From contig JAUQVK010000017.1 in assembly GCA_039794845.1 (NCBI GenBank), positions 1-40,107 on the forward strand: a stretch of 40,107 bases of DNA, read 5' to 3'. Positions 17,987 through 34,298 of the stretch are shown piece by piece (position 1 is the first letter of the stretch; every line of letters starts with the position of its first letter). This DNA is from Thermostichus sp. DRC_bins_24. GTDB taxonomy: Bacteria > Cyanobacteriota > Cyanobacteriia > Thermostichales > Thermostichaceae. Both the position numbers and the translations under genes were made by a program. Below the pieces are notes generated by a model, which saw only the letters and a program-made list of their open reading frames with translations, made no database searches and had not been told where the DNA came from.

Positions 17987-18835
17987 ATGATCATGCCTCG
18001 ATTTGAAAACGTGATTGCCGCCATCGACGGCAGCGGTACCACTGAGCAGATGATCCACACCCTACTGTCGTTGCCGGCTTTTGCCAAAAGCAACGTGACC
18101 TTGCTCCATGCGGTGCCTTCCCAAACCACAGCGGAAGACATGCGCAACGAATGGCAAAAAGGGCAGGAGCTCTTGGCCAAAACCCTGCAAACCTTTCCGG
18201 CCCAACCGGGCGTGAAGATCAGCACCCAACTGGTGGAGGGGGATCCCAAGGTGGTGGTCTTGGAGGTGGCGGAATCCCTGCCCAACCCGCTGATCGTGAT
18301 GGGCTCCCGGGGCCGCGGTCGCATTATCGCCATTCTGCAAAACTCGGTCAGCCAGTACGTTTTCCAGCTGTCCTCCTGCCCGATGTTGCTGGTCAAAGAT
18401 GATGCCTACATCAAGCAGCCCAACCGCGTCATGGTGGCCCTGAACAATTCCCCCAGTGCCCAAGAAGCGCTCTCCACAGCCATGGAGTTGGTGGCGGGCA
18501 TTCCGGGTACCCAGATCTTCTTGGCTCGTGTCCAGCTGGACGCCGACAACCAAAGCAGCGATGAGGTTTTGAATCGGGCGATCGATACCCTTAAGCAGCG
18601 GCAAATTGGCTATCGGGTGTTTACCGCCGTCGGGGATCCCGGAACGGAGATTGTCCGTTTGGCTGAACAAAGCGATGCCGACCTCTTGGTGATGGGATCC
18701 CCAGATCGCCGCCCTACCATCGCCCGCAACATTCCCGATCTGGATCGGCTGTTGGGCCGTTCCATTTCCGATTATGTCCGGGTTCACATCGGTTGCCCGG
18801 TACTGATGGTGCGCTCCGCCCGCGACACCGACTAA
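17987..18835 (+). CDS. Universal stress protein (tandem USP domains)
   Basis: AAIDGS, EGDP..LIVMGSRG, SVSQYV, GDPG..LLVMGS and CPVLMV motifs. Confidence 0.92.
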   Translation: MIMPRFENVIAAIDGSGTTEQMIHTLLSLPAFAKSNVTLLHAVPSQTTAEDMRNEWQKGQELLAKTLQTFPAQPGVKISTQLVEGDPKVVVLEVAESLPNPLIVMGSRGRGRIIAILQNSVSQYVFQLSSCPMLLVKDDAYIKQPNRVMVALNNSPSAQEALSTAMELVAGIPGTQIFLARVQLDADNQSSDEVLNRAIDTLKQRQIGYRVFTAVGDPGTEIVRLAEQSDADLLVMGSPDRRPTIARNIPDLDRLLGRSISDYVRVHIGCPVLMVRSARDTD

Positions 18836-21507
18836 GACGAACTTAACCCACTTAAACCATCGGACTGACCGGTTCGGCCTTGGTCTTGAACTGGATGAAC
18901 TTGATCTTGAAGTTGCTGGTGTTGTAGCCAAGCACTGACATTCACCCGAATCCGTTGCCCCATCTGTAAAAGGCGGTGCAGGTTATCGGCAGAAATATCC
19001 TGACATTCTTCCTGAAGCCAAGCCGGGCAGCGAGGGGCGATCTGGTGCTCCAAACCTGTTAGGTAGAGCTCTTGCAAGCGATCTATATCGATGGGCAGGC
19101 GCAGATCTACCGCCAGTTGCAGCCACTCCTCCAGGTTGTAGAGCTGTTCGCTGAAGGTCTCGGGCTCAAAAGCATGGGCGAGGTGCCACATTCCCCGGTG
19201 CAGCAGCCGATTCAGGGACTGAGCCGCTTCTTCCCGCCGCAATTGACACCCCAACTGCTCCGCCTCCTGGGCAATGGCCCGCAACTCCATGAGATGATCC
19301 CGTCTGCCCTCCTCCATTTCCATTGCTCGTAGACTGGCCAAAAGCCGTTGGTTGAGGGTGATCTGGGCTGCTGCCAACAGCTCCTCGGGAATCGGTAGGC
19401 CATCGGCACGGAAGGCCATCAAAACCCCGTAGTTGTCCAAATAGGTTTGCCGGTAGAGCTGGCCCAAGCGAGCCAAGGTATCTTGGGTGAGCCAGCGCAT
19501 CATCTGTTGCCGATCTTCGTCGGCCAGAGCGTTCAGATCGTAGGTCTCCGGCCCGAACAGCTCTTTCAAGGTCAGGATCAGCTGCACCCGGCTGTGGGAT
19601 CCCCCCATCAATCGGCTCTTGAGGTGTTCGTAGGCGCGCCGCCCCGTGAAGGGCTTAACCCCGCACTGAAAGTCCCAGCCGCCAATGTGCAGCACCGCGT
19701 AGATCAGATCATGTTCTTCTCGGGTGGTGGGAAAGGTGAGCTTGACTCGCCCGATCACCAACGTCGATCCCCCCAACAACAGACGCTCCCGATCCACCTG
19801 ATCCAGCACATAGCCGTGGGATCCGGTTTGTCGGTGAGGCATACCGTCAAACAGAGAAGACATGGCATGGTGGGCCACAAGCCGATGGGGGCCCACCAGA
19901 CTGGGGCGCACCAGAGCGCGGTAGATGGCGTCCCCAGACTTGAAGGACTCGACGTTGCTGGGAGCCTTGCTCAGGCGGTGCAAAAATTCCTCTTCCAAAT
20001 TCAGATCCGCCACTTCGGCGGCCAACTCCATTGCCCGTGCCGCGTAGCGCAGGATCTGCACACCCTCCGGTCGGGAGAGCTCCTCGAAAAACCAGCCACA
20101 ACTGGTAAACATCAGCTGACTGTAGCGCTGCATCTCCAACAGGCGCAGCACCTCGACCTGATCCTCGGCTGTAAGGCGGTGACTCTGATGCTCCCGCAAA
20201 AAGGCCCCACAGCGTTCCCGATCCAAAATCACCTCGATGTAGCGATCCCGGGCCAGCCAGGGATCCCGTAGGTAGGCTTTGGCCTCGGTGTGGTAGAGAT
20301 CTGCCAGTTGATCCCGCAGCCAGTTGAGAGACTCCCGCAGCGGTTGCCGCCACCGTTGATGCCAGCCCCCACCCCCGCCACAACCGCAGTCGCGGGACCA
20401 GCGCCCTACCCCGTGGGCACAGCTCCAGGCGGTCACCGGCTTGAGTTGCACTTCCCAAGTGGGGGGATGCTGGCTAAGGAAATGGCTGTAATTGGTCACC
20501 TGCCAGCCGCGGCGGGGAAATTCTTCGGTAAAGGCATAGGCCAGGGTACGTTCCACACCGCGCTTATGGTGGCCGAAGGTTTCACCATCGGTGGCGCAGT
20601 TGATCAGTTGGGCCTCCAGCAGTGAACCCGGATCCTTAGCTGGGCGCAGGGCCGAGCGAATGCGTTCGGCCAGATGATAACTGCTGTAGACCACATCTCC
20701 AAAGCCCAGGTCTCGAGAGATGGGGCCATCGAAAAAGAAAATATCCAGGTAGCCATCCCGGTCAGGGGTAAAGCAGCGGTAGGGTCGCCGCGGATCGATC
20801 TGGTTCTGGCTAACATCCACCCATTCCGTTTGCCCGAAAGGACGAACCCGCTGGGCTTGGCTAGGGGCCAAAATGACGAAGCGGATCCCACACTCCACCA
20901 AAGCAACGACGGTGGCAGCATCGATGGCGGTCTCCGCCAGCCACATGCCCTGAGGGTGGCGCCCGAAGCGGTGCTGAAAATCGGCAATGCCCCACCGGAT
21001 TTGGGTGTATTTGTCTCGCTCGTTGGCCAGGGGCAAAATGACGTGGTTGTACACTTGGGCGATGCCGTTGCCATGGCCATTGAGTCGCTCGGCGCTGAGG
21101 CGGTCGGCAGCGAGAATGCGTTGGTAAACCTCAATGTCTTGCCGCTCTAACCATGACAACAAAGTCGGGCCAAAGTTGAAGCTGAGATATTCATAGTTAT
21201 TCACAATACGCACCACCTGCCCTTGATCATCTAGGATGCGGGCAAAGGCATTGGGGCGATAACACTCCGCCAAGATGCGCTCGTTCCAGTCGTGAAAGGG
21301 ACTGGCGCTTGGCTGGCGCTGAATGCGGTTGAGGCTGGGATCCTCACGGGGCGGCTGATAGAAATGACCGTGCACCACCACGTAGGGGGCGGTTGTGGTT
21401 GTCTGAGCTGGCCTAGAAGAAGCGGCGTCAGGTTGGGGGGGATCCGTATTGCCTTGGCCTGATTGTGCCGCTGGCTTAGCGGAGTTTTTGGAGCCACTCG
21501 GCATCAT
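18832..21507 (-). CDS. Glycoside hydrolase family 57 / DUF3536 protein
   Basis: HGHFYQPPRE, GMWLAETA, ATDGETFGHH and MFTSCGWFFEE motifs; start placed at ATG 21507. Confidence 0.92.
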   Translation of the reverse strand: MMPSGSKNSAKPAAQSGQGNTDPPQPDAASSRPAQTTTTAPYVVVHGHFYQPPREDPSLNRIQRQPSASPFHDWNERILAECYRPNAFARILDDQGQVVRIVNNYEYLSFNFGPTLLSWLERQDIEVYQRILAADRLSAERLNGHGNGIAQVYNHVILPLANERDKYTQIRWGIADFQHRFGRHPQGMWLAETAIDAATVVALVECGIRFVILAPSQAQRVRPFGQTEWVDVSQNQIDPRRPYRCFTPDRDGYLDIFFFDGPISRDLGFGDVVYSSYHLAERIRSALRPAKDPGSLLEAQLINCATDGETFGHHKRGVERTLAYAFTEEFPRRGWQVTNYSHFLSQHPPTWEVQLKPVTAWSCAHGVGRWSRDCGCGGGGGWHQRWRQPLRESLNWLRDQLADLYHTEAKAYLRDPWLARDRYIEVILDRERCGAFLREHQSHRLTAEDQVEVLRLLEMQRYSQLMFTSCGWFFEELSRPEGVQILRYAARAMELAAEVADLNLEEEFLHRLSKAPSNVESFKSGDAIYRALVRPSLVGPHRLVAHHAMSSLFDGMPHRQTGSHGYVLDQVDRERLLLGGSTLVIGRVKLTFPTTREEHDLIYAVLHIGGWDFQCGVKPFTGRRAYEHLKSRLMGGSHSRVQLILTLKELFGPETYDLNALADEDRQQMMRWLTQDTLARLGQLYRQTYLDNYGVLMAFRADGLPIPEELLAAAQITLNQRLLASLRAMEMEEGRRDHLMELRAIAQEAEQLGCQLRREEAAQSLNRLLHRGMWHLAHAFEPETFSEQLYNLEEWLQLAVDLRLPIDIDRLQELYLTGLEHQIAPRCPAWLQEECQDISADNLHRLLQMGQRIRVNVSAWLQHQQLQDQVHPVQDQGRTGQSDGLSGLSSS

Positions 21508-21721
21508 CGTTAACCTAAGTTCATATCCATACGTTACAGCGATCCCCAATCTGCGGCGGTGAATGTAAAGGATTTGGTCAGAATATTTGATGGCGAACAA
21601 ACATCAGCCAGCAATCTTTGCATTGGCGGAACCCAAAAGGGATCCGTACAGGTTAGGATCTTTCTTCTAGCCAGATATGGCTATTCCAGATTCAGATCCA
21701 GATTAGAAAGAGATGTTTAAG

Positions 21722-21760
21722 CCCCCTCTCCCGCTCCGGGAGAGGGGATGGGGTGAGGGC
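21722..21760. repeat. GC-rich palindromic dispersed repeat
   Basis: CCCCTCTCCCG-CTC-CGGGAGAGGGG perfect stem followed by ATGGGGTGAGGG, a common intergenic repeat type; may also act as a terminator. Confidence 0.75.
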
Positions 21761-21848
21761 AGGTGTGGCAAACTCAGTTCAAAGAACCCTAACACCGATC
21801 ACTACTTTGCAACTCTGAAACTCTGATCTCCAAGCTGAGCTGCGTTAG

Positions 21849-22997
21849 CTAGCTGGGGGCCGACTTGCCGGTGGCCATTTCCCACACCGAGTAATCCACC
21901 ACCGCCGCAGGGGGATCGGCACTGAGAATGCCCAGAGCCTTGAGGGTTTCCACATTGGCCTGATATACCGAGGGCACCAGCAATCCAGCGTTGCCCTCCA
22001 GGGTGGGGCCCGCCTGGTACAGCTTGGCAATTTCGGTCATTTGCCAGGTTTGGTGCTTGAGCGGATCCGATTCTGAGCCGGATCCCTGACAGGTGGCGCC
22101 ACAGAAGGTCAAGACCACTTGCACCGTTTCTTCTGGGTTGGCAACGGCGTAGTCCCAGCCCTCAAGGGAGGCTTTCACCAGTTTGGCGGCGATTGCTTTG
22201 CCCGATTGGCCGGATCCCTTGAAGTTGCTTTCGTTCAAGACGCGCTCGGTGGTAAAAAGCAAGTCTTCTAAGAGGTTAATGTCGTAGTCCGGCAGGTGGA
22301 TCACATTCAGCTCGCTCAGGGGATAGCCCAAACCGACGATTTGGTTCAACTCGTTGTAGAGCATGGCCGAGGCCACATCCACTTGATCGGGAAAGACCAA
22401 AGCCGGATCGAAACCGTAGGTGATCAGCTCCACATCCGGGTTGCTCACCCCCGTATCCAGGCTGGTGGTCAGGTCAAAGGCTTTCATCAGGGCCAAAGCC
22501 GGATACTCATTGCCTGAGGGCCAAATGCCCACCTTTTTGCCTTTGAAATCGTTCGGAGTCTCAATGCCACTGGATTTGAGAGAGACCATCGCATAGCCCG
22601 ACTGCTGGAAAATCTGGGCAATGTGAACCACCGGCAGGCCCTGGGCCCGTGCCGTCAGCAAGTCCGTGATCCAGGTATTGCCAAAGTCGGCCCCACCCAC
22701 GGCAACGGTCTGGATCGGGGACTGATCCCCGATCGGCAGCAGCTCGACATTCAGACCTTCTGCCTCGTAAAAGCCTTTTTCCTTGGCGATCAGGTAACCG
22801 GCAAATTGGGCTTGTGGGAACCATTTCAGTTGAAGTTTGACATCCACCAGCTGGCTTTGGGCTTGGGATCCCACCCCCAGTAGCGTTGTCAGCACCAGCG
22901 CCATGCCCACGACCCACGACAACAAAGGGATCCCGTGCCGGGCGGAGGGGCTTCTGAGGCGGGATAACCAGCGGAAAGAGTTACTGCCTAAATTCAT
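21849..22997 (-). CDS. ABC transporter substrate-binding protein, NMT1/THI5 family
   Basis: LQLKWFPQAQFAGYLIAKEKGFYEAEGL and SAMLYNE motifs; signal peptide; true start ATG 22997 (MNLGS). Confidence 0.9.
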   Translation of the reverse strand: MNLGSNSFRWLSRLRSPSARHGIPLLSWVVGMALVLTTLLGVGSQAQSQLVDVKLQLKWFPQAQFAGYLIAKEKGFYEAEGLNVELLPIGDQSPIQTVAVGGADFGNTWITDLLTARAQGLPVVHIAQIFQQSGYAMVSLKSSGIETPNDFKGKKVGIWPSGNEYPALALMKAFDLTTSLDTGVSNPDVELITYGFDPALVFPDQVDVASAMLYNELNQIVGLGYPLSELNVIHLPDYDINLLEDLLFTTERVLNESNFKGSGQSGKAIAAKLVKASLEGWDYAVANPEETVQVVLTFCGATCQGSGSESDPLKHQTWQMTEIAKLYQAGPTLEGNAGLLVPSVYQANVETLKALGILSADPPAAVVDYSVWEMATGKSAPS

Positions 22998-23143
22998 ACT
23001 GCGATCCTTATCTTCCGAGAGTGTCGTGCCAAGACTGTAGAGGATCCGCCGCTGGCGAGAATGTTCACCATGCTCACAATGTTGCCGAGGAGTACAACCC
23101 CAGGGATCCCTATCATGAGCGAAACCACGTTGCAGGAACTGAA

Positions 23144-24319
23144 TCAAACGCCTGACCCATGCCACCCAGCCCAGCCCAACCCCACCAGCAATGCCGTCAG
23201 AATGTAAAAGGATCCCACCACCTGTACCTCCGACCAGCCCCCCAGCTCCAGATGATGATGCAAGGGGGACATGCGCAGCAGCCGCTTGCCTTCGCCCGTT
23301 TTGCGCTTGCTGTACTTGAAGTAGCTCACCTGCAGAATCACCGAAAGGGCCTCTACCACCAGCACCCCGCCCATGAGTGCCAAAGCCCAGAGTTGATCCC
23401 CCAGCAGCGCCAGCCCCGCCAAAGCTCCCCCCAACCCCAGGGATCCGGTATCTCCCATAAATACCCGCGCCTTGTGGTGATTGTGGGCCAAGAACCCCCC
23501 ACAAGCTCCACTGAGGGCAAAAGCCAGCACCGCTAACTCCGGATCCCTGTGGATTAGCCCCAGCCCCACCAGCACAATGGCCACCACCCCTGCGGCCAAA
23601 CCATCCATGCCATCCGTCAGGTTGACCGCATTGTTGGTTCCCACCAGCGCAAACACCGCCAGCGGCCAAAACAGCCAACCCAAAGAGAGTGTGCCCACCC
23701 CCGGCAGCGTCAGGGCCGTCGGGATCCCTTGCCAAGCCAAGTAACCACAAAACAGCGCCGCGATCCCCAACTGCAAAAGCAGTTTTTGCCGGGGAGACAA
23801 GCCTTTGTTGGATTGCTGCCGGATCACCTGCCAATCATCCAGCCAACCGACAAAACCATAGGCCAAGGTCAGCAGGGCAACCGCCAGCACCTGGGGATCC
23901 CAAGCGCTCCAAGCCAGGGCCACCAGCAGCCCAACCGGCAAAAAGCTGATCCCACCCATGGTCGGAGTGCCGGCTTTTTTCAGATGAGATTGGGGCCCTT
24001 CCTGGCGAATCACCTGCCCCGCCTTCCACCGCCGCAACAAAGGGACGAGTAAAGCCCCAAGGGTAGCCGAACCCGCCACCCCAAAGGCAAAAACAGGCAA
24101 TGCCGATAAGCGCACGGCCGCCAGCAACCCCAGCAGGGATCCCAATAGCCCCAGCCACAGCCAGAGACCCCCCATGGATGCAGCGGGATCGGCATCGGGG
24201 GATCCTAAGCCCGCTAGCGGTGGGGATCCCTGGGCCGACGCAGGATCCGCACCATGAGCCGCTTGGGCAAGCAGCAGAGCATCATTATCCTCAGAACAAC
24301 GGGGAGCTTCAGCAGTCAC
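23144..24319 (-). CDS. mraY: Phospho-N-acetylmuramoyl-pentapeptide transferase
   Basis: [34 protein letters not shown] and [10 protein letters not shown] motifs. Confidence 0.96.
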
Positions 24320-24443
24320 AGGGGGTGCCTCCAGGAAATTGAGCGCATCGGGATACAGCGCCAGCCAGTCCTAGAAAACTGTATCCCGCCTCTGGAACAG
24401 ATGGAGAGGATTAGGGATCCCAGAGCACCTCGGGGTTAGCCCC

Positions 24444-26825
24444 TCAATAGGGCCATTTCCAGTTGCGCACCTCCGGCATATCCTCCCCATGCTCCCGCAC
24501 GTATTGCTTGTGCTCGACAAACTTGTTGTGAATGATCTGTTTGATGTGGGCCCGCTCATACTTGAAGCGTTCCACCCGATCCAGCACATCATCCGCCAAG
24601 CTGAAGCGATCCACCTCGTTGAGGACGCACATATCGAAGGGGGTGGTGGTGGTGCCTTCCTCTTTGTAGCCCCGCACGTGCAGGTTGCTGTGGTTGGGGC
24701 GCCGGTAGGTGAGGCGGTGAATCAACCAGGGGTAGCCGTGAAAGGCAAACACAATCGGCTTGTCGGGGGTAAAGATGCTGGCGTAATCTACATCGCTGAT
24801 GCCGTGGGGATGCTCGCTGGGGGGCTGAAGTTTCATCAGGTTGACCACATTCACCACCCGGATCTTGATATCCGGCAGGTGCTGCCGCAAAAAGTCCACC
24901 GCCGCCAGGGTTTCCATGGTCGGCACATCCCCGCAACAGGCCATGACCACATCCGGCTCGGATCCCTGGTCGTTGCTGGCCCACTCCCAAATGCCCAGAC
25001 CTTGGGTGCAGTGTTTGATGGCCGCATCCATATCCAGGTACTGCAGGGCGGGCTGTTTGCCCGCCACCACCACATTCACGTAGTGGCGGCTGCGCAGACA
25101 GTGATCCGTGACCGACAGCAGGGTGTTGGCATCCGGGGGCAGATAGACGCGAATCACATCGGCTTTTTTGTTGACCACATGATCCAAAAAGCCCGGATCC
25201 TGATGGCTAAAGCCGTTGTGATCCTGCCGCCACACATGGGAGGTGAGCAGGTAGTTCAAGGAGGGGATCGGACGCCGCCAGGGGATGTGGCGGGTGGTTT
25301 TCAACCATTTGGCGTGCTGGTTGAACATGGAGTCCACCAGGTGAATAAAGGCTTCGTAGCAGGAGAAGAACCCGTGCCGTCCGGTTAACAAGTACCCCTC
25401 CAGCCAGCCCTGGCAGGTGTGCTCGCTGAGGATCTCCATCACCCGCCCGTCGGGGGAGAGGTGCTCGTCGTAGTCGTAAGTTTCCGCCACCCAGGTACGG
25501 TCGCTGGCTTCAAACACGGCATTCCAACGGTTGGAGGCGGTTTCATCCGGGCCAAAGATGCGGAAGTTGCGCTGATCCTGGTTGAGCTTCAATACATCCC
25601 GCAAAAACTGCCCCATGACGCGGGTGGCTTCGGCTTCGGTGGTGCCGGGGTGGGGAACGGGCACTTCATAACGGCGAAAATCCGGCATTTTCAAATCCCG
25701 CGTCAGTAGGCCGCCATTGGCGTAGGGCAGTGCCCCCATGCGTTTTTCCCCCTTGGGGGCCAGTTCCTGCAATTCGGGAATCAGGCGACCGGACTCATCA
25801 AAGAGTTCCTCCGGTTTGTAGCTGCGCATCCAATTTTCCAGCAGTTGCACATGCTCCGGTTTGGAGGCCATTTCCGAAAAGGGCACCTGATGGGAACGCC
25901 AGTAATCTTCGGTTTTCTGGCCATCTACTTCTTTGGGGCCGGTCCAGCCTTTGGGGGAACGGAGAATGATCATCGGCCACTGGGGACGACTGGGATCCCC
26001 TTTGCTGCGGGCGTTGTGCTGAATTTCCTGGATCTCGTGGATGACGGTATCCAGGGTAGCGGCCATCAGTTGGTGCATTTCCGCCGGATCCGAGCCCTCC
26101 ACAAAGTAGGGTTTGTAGCCGTAGCCTACAAACAGGCTTTGCAACTCCTCATGGCTGAGACGGGCCAGGATAGTCGGATTGGCGATCTTGTAGCCGTTCA
26201 GGTGCAGGATCGGCAGTACCGCCCCGTCGTGGATGGGATTGAGGAACTTGTTGGAGTGCCAAGAGGTGGCCAGAGGACCGGTTTCCGCCTCGCCATCCCC
26301 CACCACACAGGCCACCAGCAAGTCGGGGTTATCAAAAGCCGCCCCAAAAGCATGGGAGAGGGCATAGCCCAATTCCCCCCCTTCGTGGATGGAGCCGGGG
26401 GTTTCCGGGGCCACGTGGCTGGGGATCCCACCGGGGAAGGAGAACTGTTTAAACAGCTTTTTCATGCCCTCGGCATCCTGGGAAATGTTGGGATACACCT
26501 CGCTGTAGGTGCCCTCCAGGTAGGTATTGGCCACCAAGCCAGGGCCACCATGGCCGGGGCCGGTGATGTAGAGGATGTTCAAATCCTCCCGTTTAATAAT
26601 GCGGTTCAGATGCACATAGATGAAGTTTAAGCCTGGAGTAGTGCCCCAGTGCCCCAACAGGCGCGGCTTGACATGTTCCAGCTTCAGGGGTTCCCGCAGC
26701 AGGGGGTTCTCCATTAGATAGATTTGCCCGACGGACAGATAGTTGGCGGCCCGCCAGTAGGCGTCCATTTTGCGCAGTTCTTCGGCAGTGAGCGGTTTTG
26801 TCGAGAGCTGTTCTGCCACAACCAT
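24444..26825 (-). CDS. xfp: Xylulose-5-P/fructose-6-P phosphoketolase
   Basis: [27 protein letters not shown] and [14 protein letters not shown] motifs. Confidence 0.96.
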
Positions 26826-27043
26826 AGCCGTACCTCATAGGTATCTCTACCCCCATGGTGATCCAGGTTTGGGGAATCCTTTGGGGATCTTGTGATTTCT
26901 TCTGAATTGGCCGAACGGGCCGAAAACCCACTTTGTCTGGCTAGACAGGGGCTGATGCATCCCGATAGGTTTTGCTCGTTCAATTATTCGACAATTATTC
27001 GAATAGAATGAAAAACGATTGAACAGATGAAAAAGAGGGGTGA

Positions 27044-28294
27044 TCAGTTACGATGCAAATAAGCCACTTCCCACTCTCCACCTTTGCGTTCTCTAATGGC
27101 AAAGGTACTCGATTGCTGAGTGATGAATGTCAGCAACTTACTCCCTTGGCCTCGTTGGCGCAAACCTTCCGAAATACTGTGGCCATATTTGGTGTTGTAG
27201 GCTGTACCAATCAAGCTCAGTTGGACGTATTCGCCGGCAGCTTTGCCTTGGCTACGTAGCAACTCCAGAATGATGTCAACCATCTCAACTGATTTTGGAT
27301 CCCGATAAGTCACCTTCGAAGACACCTTCCACTGTCCATCCTCGCTTTTCTTAGTGGCGAAGGCGTTCGATTGCTGAGTGATGAATGTCAGCAACTTACT
27401 CCCTTGGCCTCGTTGGCGCAAACCTTCCGAAATACTGTGGCCATATTTGGTGTTGTAGGCTGTAGCAATTAAGTTCAATTGGGTGTATTCGCCGGCAGCT
27501 TTGCCTTGGCTACGTAGCAACTCCAGAATGATGTCAACCATTTCTTCTGCTCGGTCAGCCCCCTGAGAAGTCGAGGAAGGCTCTTGAGTAGGAGGTGGCT
27601 TATATTCGTAGTTTTTTCCTGTTTGATAATTTTGAACTTGCAGGCAATGACCATGTTGAATGACTCGATAGTAGGCCACGCTATATTTGGAGAACGTAAC
27701 CGCCAGTACATCAAACGTGCGGTCGTTAGAGCAGATAAATACCTTCTCAATTTCTGGATAATGCTGATGTATTGTACCGGCAAAAGCAATCATCAGGCCA
27801 TCCGTCATATCGTCACCTGCCGGGGCATGCAGAAGATGATATCCCCGTTTTATTAAATCAACATCAGTATTACGGGCTTTCCAATTTGCAAAAGCGAAAC
27901 GATAGTTGATGGAAGTGTCCGTAACCTCCTGGATCCATTGCTCTTTGTCCACAGTTAAGGTTTGATTATCAGCATCTAACAAAATAGCTCCTACCAACTC
28001 AGTGGCTTCTGGCTGCCAAACCTGGCCGATGCAAGTCATCAACCGAGTAAAAGTCTTGGTTGCAAAAAATGTAGGTTGGAGTAATGTTTGCAGAAGACTC
28101 TCGGTTGTTCTGTTGATTCCTCTGCTTGGTTCATATCGTTCAAGAAATTGGGCAACTTTTGTTACAAAAGCCGATGAGGAAGGCTCCCACATTTGTCGGT
28201 CGGGGCGCCAGAGGTCGGGTTGATCCTGGCGAACCTGCGCCAAGGTTTCGGCAATCAGGAGGCTGACTTCAAACAGACGACGGGGTACACTCAT
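27044..28294 (-). CDS. NYN (LabA/PIN-like) domain protein with two C-terminal LOTUS/OST-HTH-like repeats
   Basis: AILLDADN, DDMTDGLMI and FICSNDRTF acidic motifs; twice-repeated EMVDIILELL..L..I.TAYNTKYG..GSKLLTFI winged-helix pattern; AT-rich. Confidence 0.75.
   Translation of the reverse strand: MSVPRRLFEVSLLIAETLAQVRQDQPDLWRPDRQMWEPSSSAFVTKVAQFLERYEPSRGINRTTESLLQTLLQPTFFATKTFTRLMTCIGQVWQPEATELVGAILLDADNQTLTVDKEQWIQEVTDTSINYRFAFANWKARNTDVDLIKRGYHLLHAPAGDDMTDGLMIAFAGTIHQHYPEIEKVFICSNDRTFDVLAVTFSKYSVAYYRVIQHGHCLQVQNYQTGKNYEYKPPPTQEPSSTSQGADRAEEMVDIILELLRSQGKAAGEYTQLNLIATAYNTKYGHSISEGLRQRGQGSKLLTFITQQSNAFATKKSEDGQWKVSSKVTYRDPKSVEMVDIILELLRSQGKAAGEYVQLSLIGTAYNTKYGHSISEGLRQRGQGSKLLTFITQQSSTFAIRERKGGEWEVAYLHRN
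27109..27541. repeat. 175-bp near-identical direct repeat, period 258 bp (86 aa)
   Basis: 27109-27283 versus 27367-27541; 6 mismatches counted by eye, all in one short cluster. Confidence 0.93.
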
Positions 28295-28564
28295 GGGGTC
28301 GATAAGTTTTGTTATTGATTATACAGAACTTGCAGATTACTGCAATTCTTTGTCTAGGCGTGTACATCAAAATTGCCTAGCATAGAATGGATTTCAGCTT
28401 TGCACAAAACAGTTGGCTCTCCTGACTTTACGGTGACAGATTCAGAGGATCCCAGTATCAATGCCTTATGGGGAAAGGATTTCAGGGCACCAGTGGAGCG
28501 CGCTTCACCACGTTTCCGGGAGAGCTGAACAGTTTTCAGTTTCGGCTGCGTCTGGAGGGATCCC

Positions 28565-31500
28565 ATGTATGTGTATTGTACGGCATCGGTCGAAGAGGCC
28601 GCGCGCGAATTGGATCTAACACAAAAATTGACGGACTTGGTGAGGCGGCTGGAGGCAGGGGATCCCATCCTGATCGAGCGACTGTTCGAACCGCGCCACC
28701 CTTTTTGGAAGCGTAGCCTCCGCAACAACATCCGCTTGCTGGGGGAGCGGCGCTGGCTGGGGCAGGTGCCCATTCTGGTTTTGTTTGGGCTGTGGCAGCG
28801 CGGTGGGCATGAATACAGAAAGTTTTTGGATAACCGGGAGACAAGTGCTTATCAGGACTGGGTGAGAGGGCTGGTGAGCGACGCCCAATTGTGGGCTTGG
28901 CTGGAGGAGCGGCAGTTGGAGGATAGGCCAGATGAGCCTTTGGAGTTGCCCACAGAACTCCTCGGTTGGACGCAATTTTTGCATGACCACGACTACCGAC
29001 AGCGGCTGGTTTTGGAGAGTGGGATGTGGGTGGAGCAGATGCAAGCGCTTGCTCAGGAGCAGCGACGCCAAGTGTATCGGGCCGTATCGGCCTGGGTGGA
29101 CGATGGGCAAGGGATCCGCTGCGGGCGGTTGGCGGAGTTTTATCCCGGGGCAGCGGTTAAATGTTGGCAGGAAGAAACGATGCATCTGGTGGTCAGTTGG
29201 GTGCAGGTCTGCGAGCACCAAGAGCTGTTTCCCTTCCTCATTGGGGTTTACGACCATATGCCCCAGCAAAGGGAAAGGTTTGAGTTGGGAAAACAAACGG
29301 GGTTGTTCGGGCAGGGAACATCTGAGTCAGCGATTCTCCAGTCTCCTCAACCTTTAGAAAGATGGAAGCAATATGCTCGCCGTGCCTACCCCGACTACAT
29401 GGTGGGAGATGAGGCCATTTGGCTGGAAATGCAGACAGAAAGGGAAGGCAACTTGGCCCTGTCGATGGAGGAGGAAGCCATCCTACAAGAGCAGGGGATG
29501 CCCTTGCTCATTAACGGGCGAGCCGGCAGTGGCAAATCTCTGATGTTGTACTACCGTTTTGCCGACTACTGCAGTTACTACCTCAAAACAGGCCGCTATG
29601 AGGCTCCGGAGTACCGGCCTCTTTTTTTAACCTACAGTTCGGGCTTGGTGCGACAAGCCCAGGCCAAAGTTAAGAAAATCCTGCGGGTTAGCCACCTGCA
29701 CCGTGCGGAGCGGCAGTTTTCCGAAGACGAGATTCGGGAGTGTGAAGTTTTTTTCAGCACTTTTCAGGAGTATCTGCTGAGCTGTCTGTCCCCGGAGCGG
29801 CAGGAACACTACCAACCGGACAAATACATCAACTTTTACCGATTTCGTCACCGCTATCCCCATCGCCGCGATGTGGAACTGGCCTGGCACACCATTCGTA
29901 CCTTGATCAAAGGCTACGAGGTCAGCGACTATCTGGATCCAGAAGGCTACGGGGAACTGCCCCAGGCCGATCGCAGCGTTGACGAGCAAATCTTTGAGCA
30001 GATCTATCGAACCATTTGGCCGGGTTATCACAGGCTAACAACCCACGAAGGCTACTGGGACGATCAGGATCTGGTCAGGGATGTCTTGGCAAATGGTACC
30101 CTCAAACCCATTCATCCCGTGATTTTCTGCGATGAGGTTCAAGATTTTACACGAGTTGAACTCAGTGTGATTTTGTGTTCATCTCCTTGGGGCCAATTCA
30201 GCCTCGACTGGAGGGTTCAATCGCTACCCTACGCCTTTGCCGGGGATCCCTTGCAGACCATTAACCCCACCGGGTTTCGTTGGAGTGTCCTTAAAAATCA
30301 TCTTCATGAGCATATTCGCGCTCACCGTTTGCCCAATCATCCCTTTCAGATGCCGGGTATCCAAGAACTGGGCAACAACTATCGTTGCAACCCCTGTATT
30401 ACCCGGTTTAGCAATCTGGTCAACTTATGGCGGCGGGTTCTTTTGAATGATGCGGAAATTGCACCTCAGCGGCCTTGGCGTCCGCACGAGCAGGGAATGC
30501 CGGTTCAGACGTTCATTCTGCAGGAAAACTTAACTCCGGCGGAGTTACGGGGGATGCTCAACAGCAGCACAGGGACGGTCTGCATTCTCCCTTGTTCTGT
30601 GGGGGAAGAACTGGACTATGTGCGGCGGGACCCGCAACTCCCAGCTGTTTTTGCTGAAGAACTCCGGCACAACCGCAAACCGGAGATCCTCCAGACGGTT
30701 ACAGCTATCAAGGGTATGGAGTTCAAAAAAATTCTTCTCTACAAGTTCGGAGAATATTATCAGCAAAACTTTAACCGTAGCCTTCAGCATTACGCCCAAG
30801 GGAATCTAGAGGAGATATCTCACAGGTTGCAGTATTTTCTCAACCAACTGTACGTGGGCATCACCCGTCCCATCGAAGCTTTGGCCATCGTGGATACGCA
30901 GACCGGTTGGCAGCAGTTCTGGGATCCGGCTGTGGAAACCCACTTTTGGTTGGATCAGTTGGGAGAAAGGCAACAGCAGTGGCAAGCGGATCCACCGTTG
31001 TTGAATTGCCCTGTTCGGGGGATGGGGATCCCGTACTGGACAAATGAAAATCTCCAGGAGGTGCTCCGCTCGGCTGTTGAATTTCTCAAGCAGGGTGCCG
31101 AGGAGGGGGATCTTCAATCCCTCAGGGATGCGCAGGCTTTTGCTGAGCGGGCGGGTAACCCGGAGTTGGCCCAGGAATGTGCAGCTTGGATGTCTCAGGT
31201 GGCGGGGCAGTACGTGGAGGCCGGGCAGCAGTTTTTGCGGTTGCAGGCTTTGGCTGTGCCCAATAGAACGCCCAAACGGGAAGCCTGGGAATGTTTCTGG
31301 AGAGGGAAGGCTTGGTCTGCTCTACAGCGGTATCGCAACGAGTTTGAGGGGATCCCCGACCTCCCTGACTATGGCCCCCTGGTTGATTTGATGACGCTGC
31401 TGGAGACAACTGCCAAATGCCCGGCCGCTACGCTCTTCCAGCCTGTAGTACGGGTACGAGATTGGCTGAGACCCGAAGTGAGCCCAAAGCAGTGGGATGC

Positions 31501-32653
31501 CACCTGGAAAGACGGCATCCAGGGATTTTTCAAGGCCCTAGAACAGGTGGTCAACGCTTTGGAAACGGTTTGTCCTCAGGAGGCGGAGCGGGGAGCGTTT
31601 CTGGAGGCAACCCGCGAAGCTTTGGATAATTCTCTAGCTTTCTTGGGGCAGAGACGGCCCTTTGCCGCTCAACACTCAATGATCTTGGGAATCTGTCATT
31701 TCCATCAGCAGCGGTTTGCCGAGGCGATAGCCATCTGGCAACAAGGAGACAACAAGGAGCATGCTCTCTATTACCGGGCCAAGGCCCAACTGGAGCCCCT
31801 TCCCGGCAAGGTGGAGTGGTTGAGCAAAGACCGCCAAGACCGGGAGGTGGTACGCCTTTGGCAGGAGTCTGGATTTCCCCTTCAGGGGGAGTGGCAGGAG
31901 TACGCCAAGGTGATCGTCACCAGTCTGGAGCGCTTGAAGCACTGGCCGTTGTTGCTGCGGGTTTTGATCCAACTGCACAATTGGGAGAAACTCTGGCAAA
32001 CCGCGCAGGCCCACCCTCAAGCATGGCAGCGGGGACACGACTACGAACTGGTGGCCACTTTGGCTCGGGATTCCACCATCGGGACAGACTGGGAAGCGCT
32101 GGAGCGGCAATCCCCCGGGCTGCGAGCTTTTGTGCGGGAGGTTCTTGCCACGTTAGAAGCAGAGCATGCTTGGCTATCCCAACGGCGGACGTTGGAGCTG
32201 GGGCTGGCCTACGAACGGCTCGGCCACTACCAAGACACCCTCAAGTTTTACAGCCACTTTACTGAAGCAAAAGAAATATCGGCTCGGGGACGCTCTAAGA
32301 TCCGACAGCGATGGCTGGCCACCCACAAAAGGTATCAGGATTTTCTCCAAAGCCAAGGACGGCCAACGGAGGGTTTGGCGGAGCAGCTCAAGGAAAGGCA
32401 AGAACGCTGGGGTGAGCAAATCCCCCAGGCAGAACCGGAGCTTCCCTCATGGGATCCCTGGCAATTCCCCCTGGTGGAGCTTCCCAGTCCTGTGCAAGGG
32501 TGGATCCTACAGCAAGGCCGAACGGACGGTGACAATCCCTCCCGCCCCGGCAAGCAGCAGCGCCTCAAAGCCGAGATTCTCCAGGCACTGGATCGGCTGA
32601 GTGAGGAGCAGTTGCAGCAAATTTGTACCCAGGTTCAACGGTTCATCCACTGA
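28565..32653 (+). CDS. Large SF1 (UvrD/Rep-like, TRANK1-like) helicase/ATPase with RelE-like N-terminus and helical-repeat C-terminus
   Basis: Walker A GRAGSGKS (aa 318), FLTYS, Walker B DEVQD (aa 523), AGDPLQTI, NNYRC, KGMEF and LYVGITR (aa 762). Confidence 0.85.
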   Translation: MYVYCTASVEEAARELDLTQKLTDLVRRLEAGDPILIERLFEPRHPFWKRSLRNNIRLLGERRWLGQVPILVLFGLWQRGGHEYRKFLDNRETSAYQDWVRGLVSDAQLWAWLEERQLEDRPDEPLELPTELLGWTQFLHDHDYRQRLVLESGMWVEQMQALAQEQRRQVYRAVSAWVDDGQGIRCGRLAEFYPGAAVKCWQEETMHLVVSWVQVCEHQELFPFLIGVYDHMPQQRERFELGKQTGLFGQGTSESAILQSPQPLERWKQYARRAYPDYMVGDEAIWLEMQTEREGNLALSMEEEAILQEQGMPLLINGRAGSGKSLMLYYRFADYCSYYLKTGRYEAPEYRPLFLTYSSGLVRQAQAKVKKILRVSHLHRAERQFSEDEIRECEVFFSTFQEYLLSCLSPERQEHYQPDKYINFYRFRHRYPHRRDVELAWHTIRTLIKGYEVSDYLDPEGYGELPQADRSVDEQIFEQIYRTIWPGYHRLTTHEGYWDDQDLVRDVLANGTLKPIHPVIFCDEVQDFTRVELSVILCSSPWGQFSLDWRVQSLPYAFAGDPLQTINPTGFRWSVLKNHLHEHIRAHRLPNHPFQMPGIQELGNNYRCNPCITRFSNLVNLWRRVLLNDAEIAPQRPWRPHEQGMPVQTFILQENLTPAELRGMLNSSTGTVCILPCSVGEELDYVRRDPQLPAVFAEELRHNRKPEILQTVTAIKGMEFKKILLYKFGEYYQQNFNRSLQHYAQGNLEEISHRLQYFLNQLYVGITRPIEALAIVDTQTGWQQFWDPAVETHFWLDQLGERQQQWQADPPLLNCPVRGMGIPYWTNENLQEVLRSAVEFLKQGAEEGDLQSLRDAQAFAERAGNPELAQECAAWMSQVAGQYVEAGQQFLRLQALAVPNRTPKREAWECFWRGKAWSALQRYRNEFEGIPDLPDYGPLVDLMTLLETTAKCPAATLFQPVVRVRDWLRPEVSPKQWDATWKDGIQGFFKALEQVVNALETVCPQEAERGAFLEATREALDNSLAFLGQRRPFAAQHSMILGICHFHQQRFAEAIAIWQQGDNKEHALYYRAKAQLEPLPGKVEWLSKDRQDREVVRLWQESGFPLQGEWQEYAKVIVTSLERLKHWPLLLRVLIQLHNWEKLWQTAQAHPQAWQRGHDYELVATLARDSTIGTDWEALERQSPGLRAFVREVLATLEAEHAWLSQRRTLELGLAYERLGHYQDTLKFYSHFTEAKEISARGRSKIRQRWLATHKRYQDFLQSQGRPTEGLAEQLKERQERWGEQIPQAEPELPSWDPWQFPLVELPSPVQGWILQQGRTDGDNPSRPGKQQRLKAEILQALDRLSEEQLQQICTQVQRFIH

Positions 32654-32706
32654 GTCAGCAAGTTGGGAAAAGCTTGGCCTCTCAAGGGCGCCCTGTTGCT
32701 CAAAAC

Positions 32707-33792
32707 CTACCACCACCAGGGCTTGAGGGGGGTACCATCGGGAAAGATCAAGCCCGCAATCCAGGCGCCACTGTGTTTGAACCCCTCGATCAGGGATCCC
32801 TCGAGGTTAGCCTGTTCGAGATGGGCCCCACTGAGATCGGCTCGGCGCAGGTTGGCCCCCTGAAACTGAGCTTGGCGTAGCTCGGCGCGCCTGAGATCCG
32901 CCCCTTCCAAATCGGCGTTTTGCAGCTGGGCTCCCCGCAGATCCGCCCGTTGCAAATTGGCCCCCCGCAAATCCGCCCCCTGCAACTGGGATCCCCGCAG
33001 GTCGGCACCCCTGAGGTCGCAATCTTTCAAGTTAATGCCGCTCAGGGATAGCTGCCGCAGATCGGCTTTGCTCAAGTCTTGGCCGGAGAGGTCTTGCCCT
33101 TCGCCCCCCTGGTTTTGCAATCGCCAAATGTGGCGCACCCGCTCTTCGAGGAGGGTATCTGGTGAAAGCTGGGATCCCCGCAAACTGGTGCCACTCACCT
33201 TTACCCCCCGCAAATCCGCTCCCCGCAGATCGGCCGCTTGGAGATCGGCTCCACTCAGCTTGGCCTGTTGCAGATCCGCCTGGCGCAGATCGGTTTGGTG
33301 CAGCTGGGCGCCATTGAAGTTGCAAAAGCGCAGATTGGCCCCCCGCAAATTGGCCTCCAGCAGGTTCACCCCTCCTAGTCGAGCCTCCGAGAGCTGGGAT
33401 CCCTCCAAGTCTGCGTAGGAAAAATCCCGTTCCCCACGCCGATAGGCCACGATCACCCCCTGCGCTCCCCCCACCGGGCGAAACGGGCTGTAGGTGCGAC
33501 AGGCAGCCTCTGCTTGCGGTTGACCCAACTGAGACAATAACCGCCAAGCCCCCAAGCGCACCGCCCAAGAGCTGTTCCCCGCCAAAGCCTCGATCAGAGT
33601 GCTCAAACCTGCCGACCCGTAGTTGAGCAGTTGCGGCAACGTGGCCAACCGCACGGATTCTTCTGCGTGGGTGAGCCGCCGCTGGGCTGCCTCCAAGCCC
33701 CCCAACACCAGGGCATGGCTGGGAGCACCCCCGGCTGCCCGTTGCCCCCCCAACACCAGATCCCAAGATTTTGGCTGGGGATGACCTGTCAT
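32707..33792 (-). CDS. Pentapeptide repeat protein with N-terminal HEAT-like helices
   Basis: Two long A(D/N)LxG arrays; N-terminal VRLATLPQLL / VRLGAWRLL helices. Confidence 0.92.
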   Translation of the reverse strand: MTGHPQPKSWDLVLGGQRAAGGAPSHALVLGGLEAAQRRLTHAEESVRLATLPQLLNYGSAGLSTLIEALAGNSSWAVRLGAWRLLSQLGQPQAEAACRTYSPFRPVGGAQGVIVAYRRGERDFSYADLEGSQLSEARLGGVNLLEANLRGANLRFCNFNGAQLHQTDLRQADLQQAKLSGADLQAADLRGADLRGVKVSGTSLRGSQLSPDTLLEERVRHIWRLQNQGGEGQDLSGQDLSKADLRQLSLSGINLKDCDLRGADLRGSQLQGADLRGANLQRADLRGAQLQNADLEGADLRRAELRQAQFQGANLRRADLSGAHLEQANLEGSLIEGFKHSGAWIAGLIFPDGTPLKPWWW

Positions 33793-33822: not shown

Positions 33823-34197
33823 CTATACCCAACGCCCCACCACCACACGGATGGTGCCATCTTCTAGCTGTTCTTCTGCTTCGATGGCAAAGCCCTGTTG
33901 TCGAGCCGAGCGCAGCAGCTGTTTGTGGGCATAGCGCTGCAAAATCGGCTGCAAAAAAGCCTGCTGATCGATGCCGGCCCCCCACAGATCCGCCACCAGT
34001 TCGTAGTGCTCGCCATTGCGCCGAAACCCAATATCGAAGCCATTTTTCTGGCGAATGACAAAATCGGCACGGGTGCGATTCCACAGATAGCCCCGCAGGC
34101 TGGCCTCCCGCTCAACGGTGTAGCCCAATTCTCGGAGGGTCTCTTCCAGAAGATCTGCCTCCTTAATTTGCACTTGCAGGGTGGTGAAGTGGGACAT
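33823..34197 (-). CDS. ycf35: Ycf35/DUF1257 family protein
   Basis: MSHFTT, DIGFRRNG..YELVADLW, QRYA and DGTIRVVVGRW motifs. Confidence 0.88.
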   Translation of the reverse strand: MSHFTTLQVQIKEADLLEETLRELGYTVEREASLRGYLWNRTRADFVIRQKNGFDIGFRRNGEHYELVADLWGAGIDQQAFLQPILQRYAHKQLLRSARQQGFAIEAEEQLEDGTIRVVVGRWV

Positions 34198-34298
34198 TGC
34201 AGGGCCGATCAACACACAAGAATGGGATCCTCACTATAAAAGCGGTCTTTCAGCAAAGCCAAAAAATTTTATGGAGCGTCACAATCCCTGCCAATCCC

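Follow-up and report, generated by a model that had tools for sequence, protein, structure and literature searches.

Do two divergent genes in a cyanobacterial genome, one for a NYN-LOTUS protein and one for a giant helicase, work together as one system? The genes are located in a stretch of 40,107 nucleotides from Thermostichus sp. DRC_bins_24 (contig JAUQVK010000017.1 of assembly GCA_039794845.1), here called the window; its genome is referred to as G000, and other G numbers are relatives or sampled genomes. A preliminary description of this DNA reported two divergent open reading frames (ORFs) with a spacer of about 270 bp, located between xfp on one side and a pentapeptide gene and ycf35 on the other. 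It proposed that they form a module in which the helicase senses a foreign molecule and the NYN protein cleaves RNA. Both ORFs were found exactly as described, the spacer is 270 bp and the neighbours are confirmed by Pfam, see Table 1. The two-gene module itself does not hold in the comparison of genomes. We conclude that the NYN-LOTUS gene and the helicase gene are accessory genes independent of each other, which happen to be neighbours in a single lineage, and not a conserved two-gene system. That the genes are independent and that the helicase protein is a candidate single-protein, ATP-gated, RelE-type translation toxin has, in our estimate, about even chances of being right.

The pairing was evaluated in a close set, 40 relatives together with G000, and in a class-wide set of 401 cyanobacterial genomes. 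The NYN family is present in 74 and the helicase family in 33 of the 401 genomes, and both are found in ten, compared with 6.1 expected (hypergeometric p 0.06, kinship ignored). In only two of these ten, G000 and G008, are the genes adjacent, and these two genomes belong to the same genus. For six of the others (G016, G055, G175, G273, G287, G315) no partner is present in the flanks of either gene (~7-8 kb on each side, shorter where a contig ends), and in G065 and G357 the two matches are on different contigs. Around the NYN homologue no helicase was found, either in 20 other genome loci (to a distance of about 8 kb) or in one metagenome locus (8 kb upstream, ~1.5 kb downstream); in the same way, none of 21 other helicase loci contains a NYN gene within ~7-8 kb. 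The recurrent adjacency across lineages that was looked for among the homologs is thus not seen.

The close set gives the same picture. The helicase is full-length in G001, G005, G006, G007, G008 and G011 (60-66% identity), in G016 (43%) and in G022 (38%), and the NYN gene is present only in G008, G016 and two distant genomes. In G001, G005, G006, G007 and G011 the helicase occupies a different, conserved locus, flanked by a hisC-like gene and, at the opposite end, by two conserved genes; the NYN gene was not found in these five genomes. In G000, the hisC-like gene and the two conserved flank genes are ~14 kb apart on contig C33 (~18798-32850), with about 13 other ORFs between them. Finally, G193 (family f19), whose helicase is the sister of the window copy in a quick maximum likelihood (ML) tree, has no NYN match.

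Because the adjacency is limited to two genomes of one genus, the two-gene module is disfavoured, and the adjacency is a lineage-specific accident of insertion. The rival explanation is that, in this lineage, the RNase and the helicase do form a two-gene defence or RNA-surveillance module, in which the helicase/TPR (tetratricopeptide repeat) protein senses and the NYN RNase acts as a second effector, possibly recruited by a contact of LOTUS with the helicase. Three observations speak for such a link and so weigh against our interpretation. First, the two genes make up a single insert. In G001, G005 and G006 the ycf35, pentapeptide and xfp genes are contiguous, with a pentapeptide/xfp gap of ~100-115 bp. 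In a DNA alignment the homology with this empty site stops at the pentapeptide stop codon and picks up again at ~26913, about 88 bp upstream of xfp; the insert is therefore ~5.8 kb, and the NYN-LOTUS and helicase genes are its only content. Second, the genes are divergent and their spacer is partly conserved between G000 and G008. Third, both genes are RNA-directed, which favours a link. Some literature also fits. In the accessible parts of the respective texts, the Tiamat preprint says that LOTUS domains regulate the DEAD-box helicase Vasa, Kaur et al. 2020 (PMC7159879) list SF1 (superfamily 1) helicase modules "typically accompanying the PIN domain" among effectors, and the defence candidates tested in a further preprint (10.1101/2024.01.29.577857) include both a NYN protein (HEC-09) and a RelE protein (HEC-07). 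Against the two-gene module stand the rarity of the adjacency, the absence of a NYN match in G193, the different composition of the two genes (see below), the housekeeping contexts of the NYN family elsewhere and the lack of a conserved neighbour for the helicase family. On balance we consider it quite improbable.

The second genome with both genes adjacent, G008, has the same order of NYN, helicase, pentapeptide and ycf35 genes as G000. Its NYN gene is split over two contigs, with the break at the duplicated LOTUS part. The DNA beside xfp and beyond the NYN 3' end contains mostly housekeeping genes (RNase II, Ogt, glutamine synthetase, pyruvate kinase), and G008 therefore shows a rearrangement point; a defence island at this place was considered and rejected.

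The composition of the two genes differs. The G+C content is 47.0% in the NYN gene, 46.7% in the spacer and 55.6% in the helicase gene, compared with 56.9% for the genome, and the helicase gene is below its surroundings in all seven genomes compared. The octamer GGGATCCC is a HIP-like iterated palindrome by its behaviour: 64 copies are present in the 40.1-kb window compared with 1.9 expected from shuffles, and 4573 (1.31 per kb) in the G000 genome. There are none between 26430 and 28556, one at 28557 and five within the helicase gene. The NYN genes have none, neither in 1251 nt in G000 nor in ~1559 nt in G008, and the helicase genes of these two genomes contain it at 1.2-1.7 per kb, i.e. at host density. 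This agrees with a separate arrival of the two genes, a caveat that the preliminary description had already raised. In the G048 and G193 loci with transferred helicase copies GGGATCCC is nearly absent, and the G193 locus contains 18 GCGATCGC sites in 19.9 kb instead.

The part of the spacer shared by G000 and G008 is a block at ~28380-28420 that contains TAGCATAGAAT. A perfect 6-4-6 palindrome, TTGCAGATTACTGCAA, is found at 28330-28345, a promoter-like site at 28361-28388(+), and a TAGAAT -10-like element lies within the G008-conserved block (window 28361-28420). Judged from sequence, the palindrome and the conserved block are possible shared regulatory sites.

Table 1. Location of the two genes, their predicted domains and their surroundings in the window.
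Feature	Positions	Strand	Basis
NYN-LOTUS gene (P0001), 416 aa	27044..28294	-	ORF table
RelE-RelE'-SF1-TPR gene (P0002), 1362 aa	28565..32653	+	ORF table
Divergent spacer, 270 bp	28295..28564	.	Between NYN-LOTUS and helicase ORFs
Insert relative to the pentapeptide-xfp empty site of G001/G005/G006	26914..32706	.	Borders approximate
P0002, RelE-fold domain 1 + helical extension, aa 1-117	28565..28915	+	Fold match
P0002, second, weaker RelE-like fold, aa 146-239	29000..29281	+	Fold match
P0002, UvrD-like SF1 ATPase/helicase core, aa ~296-790, motifs I-VI	29450..30934	+	Alignment
P0002, C-terminal helical TPR-like region, aa ~800-1362	30962..32650	+	Weak matches
P0001, N-terminal helical domain, aa 1-95	28010..28294	-	AlphaFold2 (AF2) model; NYN-family-specific; barely probed by fold search
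P0001, NYN/LabA-type PIN-like nuclease domain, aa 98-234	27593..28003	-	Fold match
P0001, LOTUS/OST-HTH domain 1, aa 241-328	27311..27574	-	Fold match
P0001, LOTUS/OST-HTH domain 2, aa 332-414	27053..27301	-	Fold match
xfp phosphoketolase gene	24444-26825		Pfam
Pentapeptide-repeat gene	32707-33792		Pfam
DUF1257 (ycf35-type) gene	33823-34215		Pfam

What, then, is the helicase protein? Scans of both window proteins against Pfam, NCBIfam and PADLOC gave nothing above threshold. The first 300 residues of the helicase protein were folded with 23 sequences, with a predicted local distance difference test (pLDDT) score of 86.5. The RelE part announced in the preliminary description is present in the model: residues 1-117 have a RelE fold, with matches to RelE, HigB and Cami1 at Z 8.3-9.7. 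The best match is the RelE domain of Cami1 (Z 9.7, root mean square deviation (rmsd) 3.2 over 97 residues), followed by T. thermophilus RelE (Z 9.3, rmsd 2.4, 79 aligned) and HigB proteins (Z 9.2-9.3, HigB2 at 9.3). The top Foldseek matches of the N-terminal model are mostly RelE, ParE, YoeB and HigB. Among 110 diverse members of the helicase family, K or R occupies the positions of K49/R50/S51 in 71-78% and that of R79 in 86%, and R57 is retained in 94% and Y84 in 88%. In our interpretation, this domain is a probable ribosome-dependent mRNA endonuclease. Residues 146-239 match E. coli RelE with Z 6.7; 97% of the 110 members share E151 and 100% share W155, and this second RelE-like fold would, as modelled, be degenerate.

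The full SF1 motif set, another feature of the preliminary description, is invariant in 18 relatives: Walker A (G318-S325, GxAGSGKS), DExQD (523-527), AGDPxQT (GDPxQT at 560-565), NYR (605-607), KGxEF (716-720) and VxxxR (764-768), which we take to be motifs I, II, III, IV, V and VI. Neither PF00580 nor PF13361 is above threshold on P0002, and among the 18 relatives PF00580 matches six (best 1.1e-12), UvrD_C eight and UvrD_C_2 nine. A PDB profile search finds PcrA (E 2e-4), FBH1 and Rep, all weak, and the protein atlas places the helicase among UvrD-like clusters. About 600 aa of helical repeats had been proposed for the tail, and here the support is limited to weak TPR matches: TPR_16 matches with E 1.1e-4, below the cut-off, a designed CTPR protein matches residues 1179-1235 (E 4.2e-06), and TPR_1 and TPR_2 match seven and five of the 18 relatives. 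The C-terminal ~560 residues thus appear TPR-like from these matches. Together with the N-terminus, the tail is the least conserved part of the protein.

Such a core also fits a UvrD/PcrA-type DNA repair or recombination helicase, where the extensions would be interaction scaffolds and the RelE-like folds catalytically dead. The core motifs and the only sequence-level matches are indeed of the UvrD/PcrA/Rep type, and the RelE family is undetectable by sequence. However, the basic and tyrosine positions of the first RelE fold are conserved across the 110 diverse members, and the accessory, fast-evolving pattern of the family is unlike that of repair helicases. We regard a repair helicase as very improbable.

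The helicase family is large: 714 cluster representatives (50% identity), 529 of them at E<=1e-10, match a profile of its N-terminal 300 aa, and nearly all among the 150 matches listed have a total length of ~1400 aa. A species-genome scan with full-length alignment identifies relatives in at least 359 species genomes. Among the matches listed, most are from filamentous cyanobacteria (Coleofasciculus, Lyngbya, Planktothrix, Microcoleus, Spirulina, Symploca, Calothrix), with others from Obscuribacterales, Sericytochromatia, Ozemobacter/Riflebacteria, Hydrogenedentes, Bacillota, Saprospiraceae, Melioribacteraceae, Kapaibacterium and Fimbriimonadaceae; the family is scattered in at least six other phyla. 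The members that were looked up are mostly annotated as "hypothetical protein", otherwise with generic names ("AAA family ATPase", "UvrD-like helicase C-terminal domain-containing protein").

In the class-wide set the family is patchy, 22 out of 169 genera contain it, and it is usually single copy. Its identity to same-genus orthologues is 60-66%, compared with 90-95% for xfp in the same genome pairs. Remnants are found in two relatives: in G003 (L012, G003:C3:95559-98852) pieces matching helicase residues ~2-42 and ~1274-1362 are close together, i.e. an internal deletion, and in G004 (L010, G004:C1:1260244-1263447) a piece of ~50-68 aa contains a TGA stop. The helicase was not found in three further same-genus genomes. 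In the quick ML tree two copies from G048 (f21) are sister to the other same-genus clade (SH-aLRT 99), in addition to the sister relation of G193 and the window copy; the f19 and f21 copies thus fall within the clade of the genus. These sequence comparisons depict a fast-evolving gene with repeated losses that has also been transferred from one cyanobacterial family to another. The two G048 copies are 1361 and 1244 aa long (L067, L068; contigs C1, C2), and the C2 copy and the G193 copy have internal duplications in the TPR-like tail. With respect to what the preliminary description had named as arguments against a pair, homologs are adjacent once more, in G008, and the helicase is not in one core synteny throughout its relatives, some of which have fragments or lack it. 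No neighbour family is present in more than 9 out of 80 loci, and none is conserved across the first 22 loci; the helicase therefore has no conserved partner or antitoxin gene.

In some genomes the helicase gene is found in a defence context. In a Hydrogenedentes metagenome-assembled genome (MAG) it is flanked, all on one strand, by hsdS and hsdR of a Type I restriction-modification (R-M) operon, which also contains PDC-S02. A Saprospiraceae MAG has it after HmaB-HmaC and before ZorA/B-like genes, and a Bacillota MAG after RTasDUF1848, a DRT-associated DUF1848 gene. The G048 C1 copy is four genes from PLD_Helicase (PADLOC E 0) and near a PDC-S03 gene, and in G196 the helicase is near a WYL/Csx1 gene. 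Payne et al. (preprint 10.1101/2024.01.29.577857) argue that a gene embedded in a Hma or R-M locus often has a defence function. There is no PADLOC model for the helicase family, and 33 members compared with PADLOC have marginal GajB C-terminal matches only, except for one protein with PtuA. In this protein, P0132 (1757 aa, Desulfobacteraceae MAG), a complete PtuA (Septu ATPase) region is present at residues 1318-1755 (E 2e-124); this is a genuine fusion or else the product of two gene calls merged into one. TnpB-like genes are found beside or near the helicase at L019:6598-7752 (G006) and L071:14191-15453 (G273), with PADLOC Cas12f/Cas14 matches of E 2.6e-51 and 4.2e-120.

Several results pull against a toxin with a role in defence. 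A specific defence gene is found by PADLOC within four genes in about 6 out of 37 loci, a raw count with no control loci that follows our own classing, where generic kinase, TnpB-like, "mad3" and enzyme-like matches were set aside. Most cyanobacterial helicase loci are in clade-conserved housekeeping synteny (rhodanese, carotenoid isomerase-like). A search of phage collections found no helicase copy, and plasmids gave one weak partial match. On the side of the protein, RelE-type Pfam families match none of the 23 N-terminal sequences, so the RelE assignment is by fold alone, and no RelE chain was found by a PDB profile search with the N-terminus. Further, the resemblance of positions 49-51, R57, R79 and Y84 to RelE K52/K54/R61/R81/Y87 is putative.

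The loci also suit a different explanation, that the 1362-aa protein is a housekeeping factor for translation or RNA quality control, with the SF1 motor on mRNA or ribosomes and the RelE fold in the ribosomal A site, where it cleaves or releases stalled messages. The conserved synteny, seen in several cyanobacterial clades and within the genus, agrees with this, as do the usual single copy, the near absence from phages and plasmids and the roughly 31 out of 37 scanned loci that are without a specific defence neighbour. A housekeeping factor is harder to reconcile with the patchy spread, the repeated loss with remnants, the fast divergence, the transfer between families, and the embedding in R-M and Hma loci together with the one apparent PtuA fusion. 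We hold this explanation to be rather unlikely.

Our preferred reading, a self-contained toxin, is that the helicase protein looks like a defence protein that combines toxin, ATPase motor and sensor, from a widespread unnamed family. The TPR array and/or the motor would sense a trigger, e.g. nucleic acid or protein of foreign origin. When the SF1 core then binds or hydrolyses ATP, this could relieve an in-cis inhibition of the RelE domain, perhaps exerted by the second RelE-like fold. The released RelE domain would cleave mRNA on the ribosome and arrest translation, which may serve as an abortive-infection or anti-mobile-element response. No separate antitoxin would be needed, because the proposed control is intramolecular. 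Of the original idea, a sensor-gated abortive infection by RNA cleavage remains plausible; the partner is not needed, as the helicase protein has its own RelE effector. A bolder version is that the ~1400-aa RelE-RelE'-UvrD-TPR proteins represent a widespread immune system of one polypeptide that has so far gone unrecognised, where an SF1 motor, and not STAND or CARF, gates the RelE mRNase in cis, with NYN-LOTUS possibly an added helper in this lineage; we view this tentatively, at somewhat below even chances. If the single-protein reading is true, it describes a new control of a RelE-type toxin, in which a helicase motor and a repeat sensor are fused to the toxin and no antitoxin takes part, and the anti-phage repertoire gains a new candidate that consists of one gene. 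Both the RelE domain and the family are missed by Pfam-based surveys and PADLOC v2. The family is common in mat- and bloom-forming cyanobacteria, which are of ecological importance and in which tests of defence systems are few. That the adjacency is lineage-specific saves effort on the two-gene model.

The other gene of the insert encodes a protein of a known kind. The AF2 model of the NYN-LOTUS protein has a pLDDT of 88, and fold matches agree with the MARF1-like architecture proposed earlier, NYN acidic motifs plus two winged-helix repeats. Residues 98-234 have a PIN-like alpha/beta fold and match the MARF1 NYN domain (5yaa) with Z 13.0 (rmsd 3.4, 130 aligned) and VPA0982 (2qip) with Z 11.7. 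Residues 241-328 match the LOTUS domains of TDRD5 (Z 10.5) and MARF1 (Z 8.7), and residues 332-414 those of Tejas (Z 9.7) and TDRD7 (9.3), with Tejas, TDRD7 and Oskar in the range Z 8.0-9.7. Foldseek matches of the whole model to CARF proteins and E1 enzymes were discounted, as they are mostly high-rmsd and multi-domain. The acidic residues D107, E118, D144, D162, D165 and D191 are invariant in 19 relatives and would map onto the metal-binding active site of MARF1. The protein is divergent: Pfam NYN (PF01936) does not match P0001 at E<=0.1, OST-HTH (PF12872) obtains 14.6 bits, below the cut-off of 23.8, and a PDB profile search with the NYN alignment gives chance-level matches only. Among the 19 relatives, Pfam NYN matches eleven (best 2.1e-08) and OST-HTH six.

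The two LOTUS domains are encoded by a 231-nt direct repeat with 89% identity, at 27061-27291 and 27319-27549 (spaced 258 nt). It was found by a direct-repeat search and missed by Tandem Repeats Finder. The repeat looks like a recent internal duplication, and the protein alignment suggests that the relatives carry a divergent first LOTUS unit. One relative, P0003, apparently has three LOTUS units in this alignment.

The NYN + OST-HTH architecture has been called stereotypic for bacteria (PMC2848206). In Synechocystis two LabA/NYN proteins, one of them also with OST-HTH, co-purify with ribosome-bound Rbp3, according to the accessible part of the report (PMC12232666). The NYN relatives are located among housekeeping genes, and ubiD is the divergent neighbour in 7 out of 20 loci; these seven come from several families. 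We assign the 416-aa protein, as a divergent member, to the bacterial LabA/"LK-nuclease" NYN + OST-HTH RNase family. Most likely it would bind RNA via its two LOTUS domains and cleave it at the metal-dependent NYN site, and its role may be RNA turnover or regulation, as proposed for its cyanobacterial relatives.

On the far side of xfp, the window contains a 661-aa ORF (21849-24319, minus strand) with a NMT1 domain at residues 342-569. It overlaps a 391-aa glycosyltransferase-4 ORF by ~690 nt in a different frame and is matched by relatives in separate pieces, so it may have a mis-set start or a frameshift.

Compared with known systems, the NYN-LOTUS protein is similar to the LabA/"LK-nuclease" (DUF88, PF01936) + OST-HTH proteins, including Synechocystis Slr1870/Slr0650, and to MARF1, with a NYN fold followed by two LOTUS domains and invariant acidic residues. 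It differs from them in the additional ~95-aa N-terminal helical domain, in being below the Pfam thresholds and in having no RRM domains. The gene itself is in a low-GC accessory insert and not beside ubiD.

The helicase protein shares the UvrD-like SF1 motif set with GajB of Gabija, other UvrD-type defence helicases and Nhi. The best GajB match of P0002 in PADLOC covers residues 710-780 only (E 7.8e-4), and the Nhi match is limited to the P-loop stretch (E 0.023). Gabija was rejected as an identity for the locus: next to this weak match there is no GajA-type partner, the neighbours being xfp and the pentapeptide gene. Unlike GajB and Nhi, the protein has a different N-terminal effector, a TPR tail and no conserved partner. 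A RelE-like N-terminus on a helicase is also reported for the helicase associated with Type I-K Tiamat, compared here by its one-sentence description and not matched to this family; Tiamat was not found among 286 helicase neighbours scanned. Apart from that sentence, the parts of the literature available contain no description of a RelE-UvrD-TPR family.

The STAND/Avs-type and other NTP-dependent conflict systems (Kaur et al. 2020) have a similar plan of effector, NTPase switch and superstructure-forming repeats; in the helicase protein, however, the NTPase is an SF1 helicase and not a STAND ATPase. STAND-family Pfam matches are found in 7 out of 18 helicase relatives, all weak (best E 6.6e-06). 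In the accessible text of Kaur et al. the matches to "RelE" are the word "release" and were set aside. Cami1 (CARF-RelE) and the multidomain RelE/ParE defence toxins (Gerdes 2025; HEC-07) share with the helicase protein a RelE-fold effector fused in one chain to a regulator or sensor. Here, the regulator is a UvrD-like SF1 ATPase with a TPR array, and the RelE domain, which Pfam does not recognise, occupies the N-terminus ahead of a second RelE-like fold; "Helicase", "UvrD" and "TPR" do not occur in the available part of the Gerdes 2025 text. By analogy, the closest functional counterpart would be Cami1, where a CARF sensor controls the fused RelE domain. The helicase protein is thus a combination of known kinds, the multidomain RelE toxins and the effector-NTPase-repeat immune proteins.

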